Shown: one piece after another, positions 3,675 through 34,105 of the stretch
Layout of the letters: each line of letters opens with the position of its first letter
How positions within the stretch are numbered: the first letter of the stretch is position 1
Assembly: GCF_013315695.1 (NCBI RefSeq)
Contig: NZ_CP054353.1
DNA: 64,000 nucleotides
Reading direction: 5' to 3' (one strand)
Origin: Escherichia coli
GTDB taxonomy: Bacteria > Pseudomonadota > Gammaproteobacteria > Enterobacterales > Enterobacteriaceae
Translations under genes and position numbers: made by a program
Notes under the pieces: model-generated
Told to the model about the DNA's origin: nothing
Databases searched by the model: none
Seen by the model: only the letters and a program-made list of their open reading frames with translations

Positions 3675-3888
3675 GTTGGAGTCATTACCGTGATAAACAT
3701 CCGGTTTCTTCCACCATCGCACCGGACAGGCGACTATGAGGGGACAACGCCGCGCTCCGTTAACGCGGTAAACCCCGGTGTGTATCGTTTTTGATTATCC
3801 CCGCACACTCGCGCAGAGGAGTCTCCCTGTCGGGCTGCGGTCTCTGTTAATGAGGGAATACAGCGACGATACGGCGCATCAACAAAAC

Positions 3889-5566: not shown

Positions 5567-5876
5567 TTATTCCCGGTAGTTTTCCTCTGTAGGTTATCAA
5601 CACATCCTGCGCCTCTAAAATTACGGGGCGCTTTTCCGGCGACTGCTCATCCCCTTCACATAACCCGGCAGCAACATCCAGGAAGACCTGTCTGATGCTC
5701 CTTCTGGCTGCTGCCTCATAAAACTCCAGCGCGGCACCTTCAACACGGTCCAGCGAGATGTCCAGGTCAAAAATTTCACCGTCAAAGCGTTTTTTGTCCC
5801 GTAACGCTAAAGTTACCGTAACTTTATTCTCAAAATTGCGGATCCCTTTCACAATCAGTTCATAGTTTTGAGTCAT
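5532..5876 (-). CDS. hypothetical protein (114 aa) immediately downstream of the holin
   Basis: ATG 4 nt after the holin stop with GGGGAGAG as SD; soluble-looking product MTQNYELIVKGIRNFENKV...; no recognised domain. Confidence 0.55.
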   Translation of the reverse strand: MTQNYELIVKGIRNFENKVTVTLALRDKKRFDGEIFDLDISLDRVEGAALEFYEAAARRSIRQVFLDVAAGLCEGDEQSPEKRPVILEAQDVLITYRGKLPGIITGSLKSPPKW

Positions 5877-9373: not shown

Positions 9374-10423
9374 TCAAACGATTAAATCCTGAACTTCCCT
9401 GACTGTCTGCTCAAAACGTCCGGTCTCCAGTTCAACGCCAATCGCACGACGCCCAAGCGCCAGTGCCGCTTTTACCGTTGAACCTGAGCCCATAAAAAAA
9501 TCTGCAACCAGGTCACCCGGACGACTGCTTGCGCTGATTATCTGCTGCAGCATTTCTGCCGGTTTTTCGCACGGATGTTTCCCGGGATAGAACTGCACCG
9601 GTTTATGTGTCCACACATCCGTGTACGGCACCTGCGCCGTCACACCAAAATACCGCCGCAGATGCTTATATTCACTCTGCAGCTCCACATACTGCCGGTT
9701 CAGTGACGTATACGTATCCACCAGCTGGTGGTGGGGCTTTTCCAGTTCACCGCGCTGATGTTTCTCTTCTGCCACCCGGGCAAACAGCGACTGTAATTTC
9801 AGATAATCGCTTTCGTTCGGTAGCTGCCACTGACTGGCACTGAACCAGTGCGACACCATGTTTTTCTTTCCTGTGGCATCTGCAATCTGTTTTGCCGTTA
9901 TCCCCAGGGCAGCGCGCGCATCACGAAAGTAAGAAATCAGCGGGGCCATCACATGCTGTTTCAGTGCACTGCCCTTCGCCGCATACCCGGCATCTTTCGG
10001 ACGATACGGCCCCTGATAATGTTCCGCGAACAGAATGCGCTCTGTGGCGGGGAAATACGCCCGCAGGCTTTCCTTGTTGCATCCGTTCCAGCGTCCGGAC
10101 GGCTTCGCCCAGATAATATGGTTCAGCACACTGAAGCGTTCACGCATCATGATTTCGATATCAGATGCCAGGCGATGACCACAGAACAGGTAAAGACTTC
10201 CGACAGGTTTCAGCACCCGCCAGAACTGCGCCAGACACTGGTCCAGCCACTTCAGGTAATCATCGTCGCCCTTCCACTGGTTATCCCAGCCCTCAGGCTT
10301 CACTTTAAAGTACGGCGGGTCCGTGACTATCAGGTCAACAGAATTTTCGGGTAACGACCGGATAAATTCCAGGCAGTCGGCGTTGATTAACTCACAACTG
10401 GATATTTTTACAGTATTAAGCAT
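9374..10423 (-). CDS. orphan DNA methyltransferase (beta-class N6-adenine/N4-cytosine type)
   Basis: 349-aa product with catalytic DPPY motif near the N-terminus (LIVTDPPYF) and AdoMet motif FFMGSGST near the C-terminus; no adjacent restriction endonuclease gene. Confidence 0.8.
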   Translation of the reverse strand: MLNTVKISSCELINADCLEFIRSLPENSVDLIVTDPPYFKVKPEGWDNQWKGDDDYLKWLDQCLAQFWRVLKPVGSLYLFCGHRLASDIEIMMRERFSVLNHIIWAKPSGRWNGCNKESLRAYFPATERILFAEHYQGPYRPKDAGYAAKGSALKQHVMAPLISYFRDARAALGITAKQIADATGKKNMVSHWFSASQWQLPNESDYLKLQSLFARVAEEKHQRGELEKPHHQLVDTYTSLNRQYVELQSEYKHLRRYFGVTAQVPYTDVWTHKPVQFYPGKHPCEKPAEMLQQIISASSRPGDLVADFFMGSGSTVKAALALGRRAIGVELETGRFEQTVREVQDLIV

Positions 10424-10985: not shown

Positions 10986-11675
10986 TTAATTGACTTTTGC
11001 AATATCTCGTCGTGAAAAAGTCGCTTTTTGTTGCGCTCTTATTTTCACGGTGCAAATCACAGATTCTCTATCGAGACTCTTAAAAATATCGCACATCTCA
11101 CGCCAGTAGTTCGCATAATTATGGCTCCAGTTATCAGGCTTAACTCCACACAGTCTGGCAAGCTCCTGTCTCTGGTAGACCTCACACCCGGTAATCCATC
11201 CTCTGACATCCTGTGCCGCCAGCCAGATCAACTTCTTCACGCGCTCCTGCGTTTTCCCTGCAATTTTTCTGGTGCCGTACCGGGTTTTAAATTCATTCCA
11301 CACCCACTGCGTTATCGCGATCTGATATTCCCAACAAATACTCCCGCTGTAACACCACAACAACCAGGCTTTATGATGTTCTTCAAGAGACAGAACAGCC
11401 CGCCGCCACGATGATGTCGAAAACTCAACCGGACTGACGAGAGGAATTGACACCCCCTTCGCCAGCGATTGCTTTCCCGGGATTGGTGGATTATCCCGCG
11501 TTATCATTTTTCCAGTCACTTCATCGCGGTACCGGATTTTTTTACGCCTGTAACGCCCTGTATCAAACATGGCATTCTCCTGCCAGGCCTCAAGCTGCCC
11601 TTTTGTTGATCCACTCAAATCGGCGGTGGCAATCATGAGTTGCTCACGAACAAACTGTAAATACTGGTTATTCAT
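10986..11675 (-). CDS. putative late-gene antiterminator Q
   Basis: 229-aa ORF in the canonical position (after rusA, before the terminator-rich late operon); Cys-rich central region; the family assignment is by position and my recall only. Confidence 0.55.
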   Translation of the reverse strand: MNNQYLQFVREQLMIATADLSGSTKGQLEAWQENAMFDTGRYRRKKIRYRDEVTGKMITRDNPPIPGKQSLAKGVSIPLVSPVEFSTSSWRRAVLSLEEHHKAWLLWCYSGSICWEYQIAITQWVWNEFKTRYGTRKIAGKTQERVKKLIWLAAQDVRGWITGCEVYQRQELARLCGVKPDNWSHNYANYWREMCDIFKSLDRESVICTVKIRAQQKATFSRRDIAKVN

Positions 11676-28772: not shown

Positions 28773-29069
28773 GTGTTGTATGTTATTTACGCTCAAGACA
28801 AAGCTGATAGCCTCGAAAAACGCCTTTCCGTTCGTCCGGCACATTTAGCACGTTTACAGTTACTGCATGATGAAGGTCGTTTGTTGACCGCCGGTCCAAT
28901 GCCAGCAGTAGACAGTAACGATCCAGGGGCTGCGGGATTTACTGGCTCAACCGTTATTGCTGAATTTGAGTCGCTGGAAGCAGCTCAGGCCTGGGCCGAT
29001 GCTGACCCGTACGTAGCGGCAGGAGTCTATGAACACGTTTCAGTGAAACCATTTAAGAAAGTGTTTTGA
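28773..29069 (+). CDS. yciI: YciI-like protein
   Basis: GTG start 5 nt after AAGGAG; product [38 protein letters not shown]... Confidence 0.85.
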
Positions 29070-29221
29070 ATAAATTAAATATTATTTAAATTCAAAGCAA
29101 TAACGAAAGACAGTCAACATAATCAATAATAAAGGGCGCATTTAAGTACACATTAATCTAAGCGCCCCTTTTTTTTCGCTACGACTTATACTTTCAGTCT
29201 GACATCTGGCTGGAGGTTTCT

Positions 29222-29479
29222 ATGTGCGGACGCTTTTCACAGTCAATGACGCGTGAAGACTATCTCGCCCTTCTCGCAGATGAAGTCGAGCAAGACATTC
29301 CATATGACCCTGAACCGATCGGACGTTTCAACGTTGCGCCAGGCACCAAAGTTCTGCTTCTGAGCGAACGTGACGAGAAACTCCATCTTGATCCAGTTTT
29401 CTGGGGATACGCCCCGGATGGTGGGATAAACCTGGATTTTTACACATACCAAAGACAGATTAGATACTCTACTAATTAG
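29222..29479 (+). pseudogene. 5' fragment of an SRAP/YedK-family gene (about 70 codons), truncated
   Basis: MCGRFSQSMTREDYLALLADEVEQDIPYDPEPIGRFNVAPGTKVLLLSERDEKLHLDPVFWGYAP then unrelated AT-rich sequence and a stop; full-length family members are about 220 aa. Confidence 0.6.
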
Positions 29480-29587
29480 ATTTTAAACTCATGATTAGTA
29501 AGAGAGACTACCATGATTTATTTAACCAAAATGTCATTTTGTGATATTCTGCATAAAAGTTCATTATTCTAGAGATAGAGCATTAAT

Positions 29588-31381
29588 ATGAGTATCGGTT
29601 TGAGCAAAGTCGTTACAAGATATAAAAACTTAAAGTTGAAATCATATGTTTTCGACATTGTCAACGTTATGTTTTTATTGTACTTATTTTGTTTTCTAAA
29701 TCAGTCAATAGTTATCATAGGAAATATTGAACCGCCTAAAGAGTTAATTGGTGCAATATTGAATTTCATCTGGCGTTCATCCCCCATTTTGTTTATTTAT
29801 TTGTTATTTAGAATAATAAACATTCCAATTTTTCTATGTTCTTATTTATCAGGCATCGCAATTATAACATTGATGTTTGTGAACAGTACTAAAATGGCGT
29901 TAACCGGTGAGCCTTTATCATTTAATGACATTGTTTCTGGATTCAATTTGAGTGTCGCAGGAAAATACCTCAACTTATCATCCATTACTTACTCTGTCGC
30001 TATTCTAATTGGCGCAATAATCTCAATCCTACTTAGCAAAAAAACGGTCACAACAAGAAAAAATTATATATCGTTATTTCTTTTAATTATCATTACGATC
30101 CCCTTTTCATTCTACCCCTATATTGGAACCATTTTTAGCCCTAACAATAGGATTTCTGAAATCATAAACTCCAGCGCGAACAACTTAAATATAAAATATA
30201 TTTACTGGAATTGGTCTCAAAATATTGGCGTTAATGGCTTGCCAATGCATATAATACAAACAAGTGTCAGAAAATCTGTACCACATGCAACTGATGCAGA
30301 ACAATTAAGATATTTAGATGAAAAAAGATCTTTAGTATCCACTCATATAAAAAATAAAACCATTATTTATGTTTTATGTGAATCATGTTGGTATGATAAA
30401 AAAAACTTCCGAGAAAATTTCAAACCTGTTATTGATGAAGGTTACAGTGAATTACGGGCCATCTCACCAGTTTACGGTGGAGGTACCGCAAATGCCGAAT
30501 TTGAAATGCTGACAGGACTACCAAGTAATTCAGATAAAATATCAGGAATCATCTATCAAGAATATTCAGATGCATTCAAACCAAAAGTTGACGCATTACC
30601 TAATGCCCTGAAAAACAAAGGCTATATTACTTTCGCAGCACATAATTACCAAGCAGACTTTTGGTATAGGAATAAAATTTACCCTAAATTTGGATTTGAT
30701 AGATTTGATAGCATTATTAATATGGGAGATTTACCACCAGAGTATAGCAGTATTAAAAAACCATGGCAGTGGCAACCTGATGACTACCTGCTTTACAATG
30801 CAGCATTAAAAGCCATCCAAAATGCAGGAAACAAAGATATTTTTGTACATTTGATCACTATGTCAACTCATGGTCCTTATCAACACATTAATGATTATGG
30901 TGAAGGTGTTTATACCTATGAGATTAATGAGGCAGTCAAAAGATTCGTTCAATTTTCACAGCAAGTAGAAAAAATAGATCCAAATGCTGTAATCGTCTTT
31001 TACGGTGACCATAAACCACCACTAAATAAATATTTCGTCGAAAATGGGGTGCTACCAAGTAATATTTTCAACAAAATCGGAGAAGAAAAAGATGAAGATT
31101 TCGTCTTTAAAATGAGCACAACCCCACTCGATTTTGGTGATGTTCCTGTGCTTATTAAATCAAATGATAAAGACGCCATTAAAAAATTCATAACCGACGC
31201 CAATGGAAAACCTTTTTTCTGTGTATCTTCATTAGTTGATAAACATTTCATTCAATCTGGATTGGTATCATTTAATCACAACGCAAAGCATGTCTGTGAA
31301 AACAGTGATAACTTTAATTATGATAAGTTAATTAACATGACCCCGTCGTGGATTTATTCAATGTCATTATTTCACGATTAG
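29588..31381 (+). CDS. sulfatase-superfamily membrane protein (LTA-synthase / phosphoethanolamine-transferase-like), AT-rich
   Basis: 597-aa product; N-terminal multi-TM region, C-terminal domain with YVLCESCW and STHGPYQH motifs; codon usage strongly AT-biased. Confidence 0.6.
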   Translation: MSIGLSKVVTRYKNLKLKSYVFDIVNVMFLLYLFCFLNQSIVIIGNIEPPKELIGAILNFIWRSSPILFIYLLFRIINIPIFLCSYLSGIAIITLMFVNSTKMALTGEPLSFNDIVSGFNLSVAGKYLNLSSITYSVAILIGAIISILLSKKTVTTRKNYISLFLLIIITIPFSFYPYIGTIFSPNNRISEIINSSANNLNIKYIYWNWSQNIGVNGLPMHIIQTSVRKSVPHATDAEQLRYLDEKRSLVSTHIKNKTIIYVLCESCWYDKKNFRENFKPVIDEGYSELRAISPVYGGGTANAEFEMLTGLPSNSDKISGIIYQEYSDAFKPKVDALPNALKNKGYITFAAHNYQADFWYRNKIYPKFGFDRFDSIINMGDLPPEYSSIKKPWQWQPDDYLLYNAALKAIQNAGNKDIFVHLITMSTHGPYQHINDYGEGVYTYEINEAVKRFVQFSQQVEKIDPNAVIVFYGDHKPPLNKYFVENGVLPSNIFNKIGEEKDEDFVFKMSTTPLDFGDVPVLIKSNDKDAIKKFITDANGKPFFCVSSLVDKHFIQSGLVSFNHNAKHVCENSDNFNYDKLINMTPSWIYSMSLFHD

Positions 31382-31731
31382 TATCTAGAAAATAATTGTA
31401 ATAAATCATCATTAATTATGTAGACGCCTAAAATTAGGCATCTACATTTTATTAGAAAAGAGGTTGTCCTGACTAGGTTGTGGAAATGTGCATCGCATAA
31501 ATCAAGGCTATAGAGCATGAAAGTGCGTTCTTCCCCCTCTACCATTGATAAATATTTAAAAGTGCTCACGCTGGATTCGATCCAGGCATTAGCATCTTTG
31601 AGTGAGAATTCCCAGTTAACTTTGCTCAACCCCTGAACAAATCGCTGTGTAGTGACGGTCTTCCGGCCATTCGGCTCTTGCTGTATCGAAGAATACCAGG
31701 CTATTTCAATATCGCTGCGTCGTGGCATCAT
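31378..31731 (-). CDS. hypothetical protein (117 aa), possibly a gene fragment
   Basis: ATG pair with GAGGG upstream; divergent from the dinI-like gene; ORF-track ORF extends to 31977. Confidence 0.35.
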   Translation of the reverse strand: MMPRRSDIEIAWYSSIQQEPNGRKTVTTQRFVQGLSKVNWEFSLKDANAWIESSVSTFKYLSMVEGEERTFMLYSLDLCDAHFHNLVRTTSFLIKCRCLILGVYIINDDLLQLFSRY

Positions 31732-31771
31732 TACGCCCTCTCTTGAATACCGGATAAAAACACAGTATAAA

Positions 31772-31791
31772 TACTGTATATACACCCAGTA
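31772..31791. promoter_or_regulatory. LexA (SOS) box upstream of the dinI-like gene
   Basis: TACTGTATATACACCCAGTA: CTGT-N8-CCAG, one mismatch from the CTGT-N8-ACAG core; overlapping palindrome ACAGTATAAATACTGT just upstream. Confidence 0.6.
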
Positions 31792-31806
31792 AAGAGGCAA
31801 TGAGCA

Positions 31807-32034
31807 ATGTTCGTGGAACTCGTTTATGGCAAAAGGAATTTTGATGGACTGCCCGGTGCAAAAGATATCATTCTGGGCGAGTTGACCAAGAGGGTTCACC
31901 GGATTTTCCCCGGCGCTGATGTCCGGGTTAAACCGATGATGACATTGCCGGCGATCAACACTGACGCCAACAAGCATGAGAATGAACAGATAAGCCGTAC
32001 TGTTCAGGAAATGTTTGAAGAGACTGATATGTAG
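31807..32034 (+). CDS. DinI-like protein
   Basis: 75-aa product MFVELVYGKRNFDGLPGAKDIILGELTKRVHRIFPGADVRVKPMMTLPAINTDANKHENEQISRTVQEMFEETDM; AGAGG RBS; LexA box upstream. Confidence 0.7.
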   Translation: MFVELVYGKRNFDGLPGAKDIILGELTKRVHRIFPGADVRVKPMMTLPAINTDANKHENEQISRTVQEMFEETDM

Positions 32035-32122
32035 CTGTTTTCAGATTAAACGCCTTGAACCGTCACACTGATTAAGTACAATCCGGCGTGGTTGCGGCTT
32101 CCAGATTATAAGAATGATTCCC

Positions 32123-32550
32123 TTACTCACTTTTCAGCGCATTCACTTCTTCTCGTAATTCACTGAGTTCGTTCATTAGTACCAGAATCGCTTCATGATG
32201 CAACGCTGCCGCAACGCCGTAAGTATCTGGAGAGAGTACTCCTTCCACCATAGTTCCATCAGGAAGTTGACGATCACCTCCCTCAGTTACTGCCTGGGGG
32301 AAGATTTTCTTAACATCCTGCGCGATAAACCCAATCCCCCATTGTCCGGTATCTTTTCGCGTCCAGGAACAACCTTTTAGCATTTCCATCTTACTGAGCG
32401 GGTCTCCAATTCTGGACACTCCATCTTTCAGGCGGCCATCTGAATTCGGAACCCATGCTCCAGGCGCTACAGCGTTACCAGTTGATTTCATAAAGCTCCA
32501 TGTGGTTCCTGAGCTTGCGTTTGCTACCTGAATATTCCCTGATAAAGAAC
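32123..32550 (-). pseudogene. C-terminal fragment of a phage tail-fibre protein (intramolecular chaperone-type domain), 5' end removed by IS insertion
   Basis: ...GQWGIGFIAQDVKKIFPQAVTEGGDRQLPDGTMVEGVLSPDTYGVAAALHHEAILVLMNELSELREEVNALKSE; the frame runs upstream into the IS inverted repeat. Confidence 0.6.
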
Positions 32551-33473
<923 letters not shown>

Positions 33474-33602
33474 GTATCGGTAGAAAAAAGAAACTTTACC
33501 AGCCTGACTGATCCTTGCGTTCAGCCCATGAGAATCTGAAATGGTTTCGATATCATCTCGTTTCTTGCCCAGGGACTTCCTGAGCTTTGTGTCGGTAATC
33601 AT
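33474..33602 (-). pseudogene. N-terminal fragment (43 codons) of a P4-type integrase, cut by the IS element
   Basis: [43 protein letters not shown] resembles the DUF4102-type N-terminus of P4-family integrases; frame runs into the IS right end. Confidence 0.5.
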
Positions 33603-34105
33603 TGAATGTGTACACATCTGGCTTGCGAGTACGCAAAAGTGTACACAAAACTCGTTGCTCAAAGATACCCGCAATGTAACACTTGTACTCGAAGTGTGAT
33701 GGCTTAGGGGCTGAAAGGCAGATGGCGTAAGGGTTCAACGTAACAGAACGTTTTTATGCGAAATTCTTCGAAATGGTCTGAATGACATTTTAAGAAAGTG
33801 TTCTGAATAGAAATTCAATATTTAAGGGCACGGTTTTTGCAACCGTGTTCTTGTTTGGCCTTTCCTTATAGGTCGGTCAGTGCATTCACCACCACAAGCA
33901 GATAATAACTTTATCTGTATTTCTTTATATGATGTGAACATATTCAGGAAAATGCCCTTTCCTGACGCAGAGTTGCTCACTCAAAACCTTTGATTACTGC
34001 GGATAAAGTCATCTACTATTGTTTAACACATTCACGCGCTGCATGTATGTTCAGAAAATGTGCACGTTGAGATAATTAAACAAAATTGTGGTTACAGAGG
34101 TATCA

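Follow-up and report, generated by a model that had tools for sequence, protein, structure and literature searches.

A putative LexA-controlled SOS module with a truncated DinI-like gene in a phi80/HK225-type prophage relic of Escherichia coli

Introduction

Does a small DinI-like gene that lies behind its own LexA box, in an island of the E. coli chromosome, supply the cell with an additional modulator of RecA, or is it what is left of a phage? The locus is part of a 64,000-nucleotide (64-kb) stretch of E. coli DNA, the whole of which was analysed and is referred to here as the window. A sequence-only reading of the window had proposed a 75-aa DinI-family gene preceded by its own SOS box, and had suggested that its product could modulate RecA activity and prophage induction. 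It now appears probable that a lambdoid prophage of the phi80/HK225 type has decayed and left its SOS module behind, that this module is controlled by LexA, and that its DinI-like product is truncated.

A phage-type DinI-like gene

The DinI-like gene occupies positions 31807..32034 on the plus strand and encodes 75 aa followed by a TAG (amber) stop at 32032-32034. It is annotated in RefSeq as 'DinI-like family protein' (WP_000497462.1). The start originally given for the feature, 31732, takes in the promoter region; the gene proper begins at 31807. A ribosome-binding site that was judged to be good (AAGAGG, 31792-31797) lies 9 nt 5' of the ATG. Membership in the DinI family was borne out by profile searches. 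Pfam DinI (PF06183) matches the ORF over profile positions 3-61 of 63 (E 3.5e-15), and the 56.5 bits obtained exceed the gathering score of 24.2; the ORF also matches the PHROG family phrog_189 'RecA filament binding protein DinI' (E 1.1e-15). An Rfam scan of the control region and the DinI-like gene found no known RNA.

Is the gene then a second copy of chromosomal dinI? The protein fails the NCBIfam DinI equivalog NF007893 (24.6 bits versus a cut-off of 111) and is 35% identical to K-12 DinI (b1061). By these two measures it is a phage-type paralogue, not an orthologue of chromosomal DinI. Its identity to phi80 DinL, HK225 gp27, and phiKO2 gp22 is 63-73%; among the relatives, only DinI has a solved structure (PDB 1GHH/7YWA). 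In the alignment, the equivalents of residues by which DinI contacts RecA are kept or conservatively replaced, namely L15, I22, and F70 of the pocket and the acidic E25 and E68, the latter two corresponding to the acidic contacts E24 and E69 of DinI. DinI W71 is replaced by F and DinI D76 by M (M75) across the whole phage-type subfamily. Pairwise dN/dS of the gene against its relatives is 0.19-0.24.

Two adjacent LexA-type boxes in the control region

A 75-bp control region separates the DinI-like gene from a divergent small gene and carries two adjacent LexA-type boxes. The strong one, box 2 (TACTGTATATACACCCAGTA, 31772-31791), begins 1 nt past the predicted -10, leaving 15 nt between its end and the ATG. 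Boxes were scored with a matrix of 17 operators, each verified upstream of its gene in MG1655 (11 regions). With this 17-site matrix, the heterology index of box 2 is 0.55 oriented and 3.00 symmetric, as compared to leave-one-out medians of 6.5 and 7.9 for the known operators (n=17), and box 2 ranks within the best of the 17 verified E. coli LexA operators. The 16-nt core of box 2 is identical to lexA operator 2 of MG1655; when that operator is removed from the matrix, the index is 1.06 oriented and 3.28 symmetric. None of 1000 permutations of the window reached a symmetric index of 3.00 or lower. Furthermore, box 2 is the sole match in the 64-kb window to TACTG(TA)5CAGTA at up to 3 mismatches, and 100 dinucleotide shuffles contained none. 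The proposal of an SOS box before the ORF is upheld by matrix scoring. The variant named for chromosomal dinI, CTGT-N8-CCAG, was also found, as ACCTGTATAAATAACCAGTA located 19 nt upstream of dinI in MG1655.

Box 1 (TACCGGATAAAAACACAGTA, 31748-31767) is degenerate. Its symmetric heterology index is 8.13, and 64 kb would be expected to contain ~0.032 sites of at least this quality. With CCG where all of the reference operators (17/17) have CTG, it may be unable to bind LexA. A relative, GF8, carries a canonical box at this position (CACTGGATAAAAAAACAGCA, index 6.38). The palindrome that had been described as overlapping the SOS box is present (ACAGTAT-AA-ATACTGT, 31762-31777), but it is formed where the two boxes meet and does not stand as an element of its own. 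A larger imperfect inverted repeat (31748-31768 against 31771-31791) includes it.

The predicted promoter of the DinI-like gene (31743..31771, plus strand) was read from the sequence and consists of a -35 TTGAAT (31743-31748), a 17-nt spacer, and a -10 TATAAA (31766-31771). Its assignment rests on homology to phiKO2 and Gifsy-2, as the hexamers align with the TTGACA and the AT-rich -10 region of both. The -35/-10 signals are annotated in the phiKO2 record, and putative -35/-10 motifs have been marked for the Gifsy dinI homologue (PMC3121763). A generic promoter scan of the control region listed no plus-strand promoter, since the -10 ends in A. The predicted -10 TATAAA is without the usually invariant final T. 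On the minus strand, a consensus scan (9/12 matches) placed a predicted promoter of the divergent gene at 31764..31793, with a -35 TTTACT (31793 to 31788), an 18-nt spacer, and a -10 TATACT (31769 to 31764). In this arrangement, box 2 would lie over the expected start site of the DinI-like gene and fill the spacer of the predicted divergent promoter, and box 1 would fill the spacer of the predicted DinI-like promoter and cover the -10 and the start of the divergent one. A strong operator within a predicted promoter probably marks a LexA-regulated unit.

The divergent gene (31378..31731, minus strand) encodes a 117-aa protein of the phrog_3893 family (E 3.4e-27). Residues 3-76 match 74 of the 79 profile positions and the C-terminal tail is diverged; the ORF has no Pfam or NCBIfam match. 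HK225 gp28 and the GF8 homologue, each divergent from a DinI-like gene, also match phrog_3893. An S24/LexA-like repressor, as suggested by RefSeq labels on relatives, was considered for this ORF and rejected, since it is a phrog_3893 protein. The S24 (HumD-like) gene of GF8 is a separate downstream ORF and not the neighbour of the box. EcN, E41, and phiKO2 have a HumD/UmuD-like gene as the divergent partner.

How well is the operator conserved? Three relatives in E. coli, at other loci, have both boxes in the same layout, 15 and 39 nt from the ATG. Each of the other DinI-like copies whose start was read correctly has one strong box or more, namely the second copy of E. coli E41 (two boxes), phiKO2, phi80, HK225, and Gifsy-2. 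The phage boxes compared are those of phiKO2, phi80, HK225, and Gifsy-2 (FSL SP-016 was left out), and their index is 2.6-3.3. The phiKO2 and phi80 records annotate LexA sites before the DinI-like gene, and the predicted promoter aligns base for base with the Gifsy-2 promoter. The position and register of box 2 are kept across relatives that share only 64-73% protein identity. A comparison with dinI copies of other prophages, which the sequence-only reading had called for, thus places the module with those of phiKO2, phi80, HK225, and Gifsy-2, each with a strong box upstream.

The island is a prophage relic at yciI-kch

The island (29052-33809) begins and ends in a 21-bp direct repeat (29052-29072 versus 33789-33809, 95% identical). 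The left att repeat (TTTAAGAAAGTGTTTTGAATA, 29052..29072) holds the phi80/HK225 attP core and aligns to the annotated attP of HK225 and to the attP core of phi80. The right att repeat (TTTAAGAAAGTGTTCTGAATA, 33789..33809) holds all but the first base of the HK225 attP core (TTTAAGAAAGTGTTCT, 16/17 nt). HK225 attP is annotated in its record as matching yciI. Further evidence comes from an N-terminal fragment of a phage integrase (33475..33620, minus strand; RefSeq 'Arm DNA-binding domain-containing protein', partial), whose peptide, ending FFYRY, matches the HK225 Int N-terminus. Window positions 33475-33804 have 79% DNA identity to the HK225 int/attP segment, and the int N-terminus and the far side of attP are 74-79% identical to HK225. 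The 21-bp att repeats, the int fragment, and the HK225/phi80 attP core identify the island as the relic of a phi80/HK225-type (lambdoid) prophage at the classical yciI-kch attachment site.

Judged by its gene content, the relic is dead. Only 4.8 kb is left, and no lytic or immunity genes were found in 29052-33809; nearly all phage genes are lost, and pseudogenes and IS3 fragments are abundant. An N-terminal fragment of an SRAP (SOS-response-associated peptidase) pseudogene lies at 29222..29445 on the plus strand (Pfam SRAP PF02586, E 2.1e-07, profile positions 1-65 of 214) and is labelled frameshifted and partial in RefSeq. It is followed by an LTA-synthase/sulfatase-family gene (29588..31381, plus strand; Pfam Sulfatase, E 2.8e-27; RefSeq 'LTA synthase family protein') in a low-GC insert (GC 0.29-0.34 versus 0.44-0.55 in the flanks). 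This gene is cargo and unrelated to the SOS module. On the other side, a C-terminal fragment of a tail-fibre gene with an S74 intramolecular chaperone domain (32123..32599, minus strand; Pfam Peptidase_S74, E 3.1e-12; RefSeq 'tail fiber domain-containing protein') is convergent with the DinI-like gene, 88 bp beyond its end. This is the position that tail-fibre genes have beside dinL in phi80 and HK225. The deletion junction carries an IS3-family transposase remnant (32587..33465, plus strand; Pfam rve and HTH domains; RefSeq IS3-family pseudogenes). A Gifsy-type antirepressor or irsA was looked for downstream, but 32035-32122 contains no start of an ORF of at least 30 aa.

Because the prophage is dead, there is no resident induction for a DinI-like protein to modulate. 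The suggested role in prophage induction also finds no encouragement in the Gifsy prophages, where loss of the dinI homologue by deletion did not change induction significantly (PMC3121763).

An amber mutation at codon 76

The DinI-like gene differs from four 80-aa relatives by a TGG>TAG change at codon 76, which by this alignment is a derived mutation and removes the five C-terminal residues (WLVSD). Two of the 80-aa relatives, GF8 and L023, read ATG TGG CTG GTT TCA GAT TAA here. In an alignment with them, the orphaned former codons 77-80 and the original stop are still recognizable at 32035..32049 on the plus strand (CTG TTT TCA GAT TAA), with an extra GTT>TTT change 3' of the amber stop. 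Trp is present at position 76 in all of the other aligned family members (8/8), chromosomal DinI included. The 75-aa protein thus misses the conserved C-terminal Trp-(Phe/Leu) pair, the equivalent of DinI W77 and F78. In DinI, RecA F203 is received by a pocket made of these two residues together with L13, L21, and W71, and replacing pocket residues by alanine is reported to impair filament stabilisation (PMC9926225). Since the amber removes the equivalents of W77 and F78, modulation of RecA, as put forward in the sequence-only reading, is doubtful for this allele, and its product is probably impaired or altered in RecA binding. The importance of W76 and L77 is extrapolated from chromosomal DinI, which is only 35% identical and from which the phage-type subfamily already departs at the W71 and D76 contacts.

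The amber is not a sequencing error, because a 751-bp stretch with the TAG is 100% identical in 25 complete genomes among the matches listed, and the exact 75-aa protein occurs on at least 1000 contigs. Among the matches listed, 29 complete genomes cover at least 80% of the 751-bp query, and 30 of 5426 complete genomes carry the island, with the allele at 99% identity or more; SMS-3-5 is one carrier strain. In L023, the same island, with the sulfatase gene upstream, has an intact 80-aa gene. The high frequency of the truncated allele, in an ORF that is otherwise intact, would also fit a still-useful protein.

Two possible signs of selection were considered and rejected. A Citrobacter copy carries the same amber at the same codon (TGG>TAG) in a separate lineage, which could mean that truncation is tolerated or even favoured. 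Ascertainment explains the recurrence at least as well, because genes with earlier nonsense mutations are not called or retrieved as DinI proteins. Likewise, the seemingly private non-synonymous changes D8G, D36G, S55N (K59N), and A73T do not point to relaxed selection, because all but A73T are also found in the intact 80-aa P0006 and L023 and therefore predate the truncation.

A model for the module and its alternatives

In an undamaged cell, host LexA would occupy at least box 2 and thereby shut off both predicted promoters. Upon DNA damage, RecA filaments would trigger self-cleavage of LexA, and its loss would allow transcription of the DinI-like gene and the divergent phrog_3893 gene. By homology with DinI, the full-length 80-aa relatives would bind the groove of RecA filaments. 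The 75-aa allele is without the Trp-Leu pair, and its binding to RecA would probably be impaired or altered.

What does the truncated gene do today? The locus may be a decaying leftover without current function, the gene being effectively a pseudogene and the operator conserved only by the close kinship of its carriers. This explanation, which deserves serious attention but falls short of being probable, would account for the loss of nearly all phage genes, the pseudogenes and IS3 fragments, the nonsense mutation, and the further change after the stop; in addition, identity of 100% among close carriers makes conservation there silent on selection. However, LexA would still bind a near-consensus operator, so that an SOS-regulated unit is probably real; only five codons are lost; and the divergent phrog_3893 ORF keeps most of its profile. 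At the other extreme, the loss of five residues may be immaterial and the accessory DinI fully functional, an SOS-induced protein that tunes RecA filaments and so affects the induction of other resident prophages or SOS mutagenesis. The otherwise intact ORF with its good ribosome-binding site, an operator stronger than in relatives, the wide spread of the allele, the retention of E25, E68, L15, I22, and F70, and the low dN/dS speak for such a protein, yet it is possible only with considerable doubt. The Trp at position 76 of all other aligned members, the contribution of DinI W77 and F78 to the RecA F203 pocket, and the Gifsy deletion all count against it, and the low dN/dS goes back for the most part to the time before the nonsense mutation, as the intact P0006 and L023 have the same substitutions. 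Selection for a variant that acts differently on RecA filaments, such as one that binds through the acidic patch without stabilisation or competes with host DinI, would explain both the spread of the allele and the same TGG>TAG in the Citrobacter lineage; it is nevertheless very unlikely.

The alternatives concerning the operator fare less well. It is unlikely that the LexA boxes chiefly control the divergent gene and that the DinI-like gene is a passenger on a shared operator, even though the partner in EcN, E41, and phiKO2 is HumD/UmuD'-like, a translesion subunit with a classic SOS function, and the only promoter from the generic scan is the minus-strand one with box 2 in its spacer. In Gifsy-2 the dinI homologue is damage-induced (PMC3121763, PMC8072944) and has this box, too, at a distance of 15 nt; in phi80 a LexA site likewise precedes dinL, where nothing but pseudogene fragments is annotated on the upstream side. 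The idea is also not exclusive, as shared control of both genes is the simplest expectation. It is scarcely credible that an AT-rich stretch matches the operator by chance and that the ORF lies outside SOS control. The loose core CTGT-N9-CAG is indeed not enriched in the 64-kb window (9 found versus 6.2 expected), but neither the permutations nor the shuffles produced a site this good, and the box keeps its position and register across 64-73% identical relatives. A probably LexA-controlled remnant with a truncated product accounts best for the locus.

What the locus adds

Beyond annotation, the importance of the locus is small, and RefSeq already names the DinI-like gene. The operator is unannotated in the RefSeq record, and its coordinates and strength are given here, together with the recognition of the palindrome as a junction of two boxes and of the island as a phi80-type relic at yciI-kch. 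The allele, truncated by a nonsense mutation at the RecA-contact residues of DinI, is a warning against reading function from a family name. In the carrier genomes, the strong orphan LexA site may act as a minor LexA sink or as an SOS-inducible promoter.

Comparison with known systems

A LexA box and a DinI-like gene beside tail-fibre genes, divergent from a small gene, is an ordinary and already known module. Further documented cases of a LexA-controlled DinI homologue at a temperate phage's tail end are phage 186 (Tum) and Serratia phages. The locus has the features of the phi80/HK225/phiKO2-type tail-end module, as its gene is convergent with a tail-fibre gene, lies near attP, and has a small divergent gene across the LexA site.

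The closest protein among these phages is gp22 of phiKO2, a linear plasmid prophage of Klebsiella oxytoca (73% identity). Both loci have a divergent pair (gp22/gp23 in phiKO2, with an annotated lexA binding site), a short intergenic region, and then a convergent tail gene, and both have the motif ACAGTATAAATACTGTATAT and box 2 in common, almost base for base. The phiKO2 DinI-like gene is stated to be LexA-regulated (PMC7556043). In contrast to the relic, phiKO2 is an intact phage whose protein has 80 aa with the WL motif, whose divergent partner gp23 is UmuD-like and not of phrog_3893, and whose left box is only a half-site. In phi80 (dinL) and HK225 (gp27/gp28), as here, the site lies between tail-fibre genes and attP, attachment is on the yciI side, the attP core and the int N-terminus match, the gene is preceded by a strong LexA box (in phi80 one annotated as predicted), and the divergent gene, HK225 gp28, belongs to phrog_3893. 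They differ in having a single box further upstream (38-56 nt) and full-length 79-aa proteins (63-64% identity to the 75-aa protein), and in being intact inducible phages with a DNA invertase, which the relic does not have.

The Gifsy-1/-2/-3 prophages of Salmonella share the -35, the AT-rich -10 region, and a 20-bp LexA box that ends 15 nt before the ATG (19 in the paper), with ~61% identity over 85% of the protein. Their dinI homologue, however, heads a LexA-repressed dinI-antirepressor-irsA operon that has no counterpart here. In Gifsy-2, induction by mitomycin C requires the segment with the LexA box, and damaged cells accumulate the DinI homologue (PMC3121763); RNA data indicate that all three Gifsy copies are SOS-induced (PMC8072944). 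Chromosomal DinI (b1061; PDB 1GHH, 7YWA) is of the same Pfam family and is likewise a small single domain, and its LexA box is the CTGT-N8-CCAG variant, as is box 2; two boxes have been reported for Salmonella dinI (PMC8072944). Compared with this distant host homologue, the relic's protein carries the W71 to F and D76 to M replacements, and it is the amber that has deprived it of the equivalents of W77 and F78.

A phage-type DinI-like gene

The DinI-like ORF lies at 31807..32034 on the + strand, specifies a 75-aa product (MFVELVYGKRNFDGLPGAKDIILGELTKRVHRIFPGADVRVKPMMTLPAINTDANKHENEQISRTVQEMFEETDM), with TAG as its stop codon. The motif AAGAGG (31792-31797, + strand) is positioned 9 nt 5' of its ATG. 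The assignment of this ORF to the DinI family in the sequence-only reading was borne out by a profile search, in which it matched Pfam DinI (PF06183) with 56.5 bits vs a gathering score of 24.2 (E 3.5e-15), and by its assignment in PHROGs to phrog_189, 'RecA filament binding protein DinI'. The sole relative with a solved structure is E. coli DinI (1GHH, 7YWA). Judged by its sequence, the protein is a phage-type paralogue and not chromosomal DinI, because it is 35% identical to K-12 DinI and does not reach the NCBIfam equivalog cut-off for chromosomal DinI (24.6 bits vs 111). RefSeq names the gene 'DinI-like family protein' (WP_000497462.1). Over the DinI-like region, the matches listed include at least 25 complete genomes with 100% identity to the window, one of them E. 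coli SMS-3-5.

LexA boxes upstream of the gene

The LexA consensus is TACTG(TA)5CAGTA (PMC6590174). At up to three mismatches, it has a single match in the 64-kb window, box 2 (31772-31791, TACTGTATATACACCCAGTA), and 0/100 dinucleotide shuffles of the window give a match. Box strength was scored as a Berg-von Hippel/Lewis-type heterology index (HI) with a matrix from 17 E. coli operators (recA, lexA (two), uvrA/ssb, uvrB, sulA, umuDC, recN (three), dinI, uvrD, ruvAB, polB, dinB, dinG, and yebG), each confirmed upstream of its gene in eleven MG1655 regions. Box 2 has an oriented HI of 0.55 and a symmetric HI of 3.00. Because its core is identical to that of lexA operator 2 of MG1655, it was rescored with this operator omitted, giving 1.06 and 3.28, respectively. 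The known operators, scored leave-one-out, have a median of 6.5 (oriented) and 7.9 (symmetric) and a maximum of 12.5 and 16.2. A symmetric HI of 3.00 or less was reached in 0/1000 window permutations, the lowest permuted site scoring 5.08. The proposed SOS box 5' of the ORF is thus found at box 2. The statement that chromosomal dinI uses CTGT-N8-CCAG was also accurate, as ACCTGTATAAATAACCAGTA is present 19 nt 5' of dinI in MG1655. To the extent that sequence alone can show, the earlier reading is right on both the family and LexA control.

The overlapping palindrome that had been reported is present as the inverted repeat ACAGTAT-AA-ATACTGT (31762-31777). It is not a separate element; it is the junction of two boxes, at which ACAGTA, the right half-site of box 1, is separated by 4 nt from TACTGT, the left half-site of box 2. 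A repeat finder extends it into a larger repeat whose 21-nt arms (31748-31768 and 31771-31791) are complementary with imperfections, and phage phiKO2 carries the identical ACAGTATAAATACTGTATAT string. Box 1 (31748-31767, TACCGGATAAAAACACAGTA) lies directly upstream of box 2 and has a symmetric HI of 8.13, with 0.032 sites so good expected per 64 kb. It may bind LexA weakly or not at all because it has CCG where 17/17 reference operators have CTG. At the same position, E. coli GF8 has a canonical box (CACTGGATAAAAAAACAGCA, HI 6.38).

A second strong LexA-like box is located at 10396-10415, reading TACTGTAAAAATATCCAGTT on the - strand (symmetric HI 4.27; 0/1000 window permutations as good). The box overlaps the opening codons of an N6/N4 DNA methylase ORF of phage type (9374-10423, - strand), which itself lies downstream of a gene for phage antiterminator Q (10986-11675, - strand). 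Another prophage segment of the window may therefore include a gene under SOS control.

Predicted promoters and the divergent gene

The predicted + strand promoter of the dinI-like gene consists of a -35 TTGAAT (31743-31748), a 17-nt spacer, and a -10 TATAAA (31766-31771). In a control-region alignment, these hexamers line up with TTGACA and an AT-rich -10 region in phiKO2 and the Salmonella prophage Gifsy-2, in both of which box 2 keeps the same register after the -10. On this alignment, the start site would be expected within box 2, and the promoter spacer would be occupied by box 1. A generic promoter scan predicts a divergent - strand promoter, TTTACT-18-TATACT (31793 to 31764), whose spacer is box 2 and whose -10 and start lie under box 1. 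The gene under its control would be the divergent ORF at 31378-31731, which has no Pfam or NCBIfam match and belongs to phrog_3893 (E 3.4e-27). HK225 gp28 and a GF8 homologue occupy the same divergent position and are also phrog_3893 members, whereas the divergent partner in EcN, E41, and phiKO2 is a HumD/UmuD'-like gene. In GF8, whose copy is in an e14-like prophage at icd, a HumD-like gene sits downstream of the phrog_3893 gene and is interrupted at ~5690-5740 of the contig by a (CTGG)n tandem repeat, read as repeated SQPA; hence its annotated frameshift.

An amber codon truncates the protein

Relatives at 89-91% protein identity (GF8, EcN, and E41) extend four to five residues further (W-(L/F)-V/T...), an end also carried by phiKO2, phi80, HK225, and chromosomal DinI. 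In the window, codon 76 has changed from TGG to TAG, and 3' of the amber lie the codons thus orphaned, then the original TAA. The amber is the derived state, because another contig (L023) with the same island, including the 597-aa sulfatase gene upstream, has an intact 80-aa gene and an identical promoter. It is no assembly error, since 751 bp including the TAG are 100% identical in 25 complete genomes among the matches listed (29 cover at least 80% of the query) and the exact 75-aa protein is found on at least 1000 contigs. Among the best 120 homologues, the usual length is 80 aa, and the only 75-aa forms are this allele group and a single copy from Citrobacter portucalensis that has this TGG>TAG in a different sequence background. 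That independent copy (JAKWHP010000180.1, 3001-3228; 84% identity, TAG at codon 76) has a similar arrangement of SRAP gene, small ORFs, and DinI-like gene and the same two-box promoter. Its amber could be a recurrent mutation or an effect of ascertainment bias.

A cryo-EM structure of RecA with DinI shows RecA F203 entering a pocket of DinI L13, L21, W71, W77, and F78, at which alanine substitution is reported to compromise filament stabilisation, and DinI E24, E69, and D76 make charge contacts with RecA (PMC9926225). By alignment, the window protein keeps L15, I22, F70, E25, and E68; the equivalents of W77 and F78 are missing. Extrapolating from the 35%-identical DinI, RecA binding by the 75-aa protein would be impaired or altered. 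The suggestion that the gene modulates RecA activity overreaches, given an allele truncated at RecA-contact residues.

The island is a prophage relic

The whole 4.8-kb island (29052-33809), between yciI and kch, occupies the yciI-kch attachment site and is what is left of a phi80/HK225-type prophage. At either end lies a copy of a 21-bp direct repeat (29052-29072 and 33789-33809) that includes the attP core annotated for phi80 and HK225, and the HK225 record annotates attP as matching yciI. The right end (33475-33804) is 79% identical to the HK225 int-attP segment and codes for the first ~50 integrase residues, and the left end (29048-29155) is 74% identical to HK225 sequence across attP from the int side. 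Between the repeats remain an SRAP fragment, an LTA-synthase/sulfatase insert, the phrog_3893 and DinI-like genes, a tail-fibre C-terminal fragment, IS3 remnants, and the integrase fragment, with IS3 debris at the deletion junction. The relic is without any gene needed for lysogeny control or lytic growth.

At the relic, SMS-3-5 has ~1.3 kb more sequence than the window, a stretch in which a complete IS3-family element is annotated. The 597-aa LTA-synthase/sulfatase-family gene (29588-31381), which lies in a low-GC block (0.29-0.34), seems to have taken the place of the 3' end of the SRAP gene and of the distal part of the divergent operon; in GF8 this operon includes the HumD-like gene. The sulfatase-family gene resembles a moron or cargo insertion within the relic. 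An Rfam isrC (Hfq-binding sRNA) match (32619-32741, 145 bits) lies within an IS3-family transposase remnant and probably reflects the IS-derived origin of the Rfam family, not a separate sRNA gene.

Comparison with known DinI-like modules

Temperate phages commonly carry DinI-like genes, and the phiKO2 gene is LexA-regulated (PMC7556043); LexA sites are annotated ahead of these genes in the records of phiKO2 and phi80. The Salmonella Gifsy dinI homologues head an operon repressed by LexA. Their mitomycin-C induction requires the LexA-box segment, the DinI homologue builds up after damage, and non-polar deletions of the homologues do not significantly change prophage induction (PMC3121763). Attributing modulation of prophage induction to the window gene also goes too far, as the resident prophage is dead and the Gifsy homologues have no measurable induction role. 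A transcriptomic study counts the three Gifsy copies among the SOS genes; their heterology indices are 3.9-5.3, and the reported distance from box to ATG is 19 bp (PMC8072944). Scans found a strong box at every other DinI-like copy whose start was read correctly (HI 2.60 in phiKO2, 3.34 in phi80, 2.93 in HK225, and 2.76 in Gifsy-2), a tally that leaves out phage FSL SP-016. The E41 genome has a second, more DinI-like paralogue of 82 aa near prfC, with two tandem LexA boxes (3692-3739 of its contig; HI 5.05 and 5.60) 41 and 13 nt from the ATG. Such pairs of boxes seem common ahead of dinI-type genes. The module is of a well-known kind, its gene already annotated in RefSeq, and the window shares with phi80 (dinL), HK225 (gp27), and phiKO2 (gp22) a gene order in which the DinI-like gene is convergent with the tail-fibre genes near attP.
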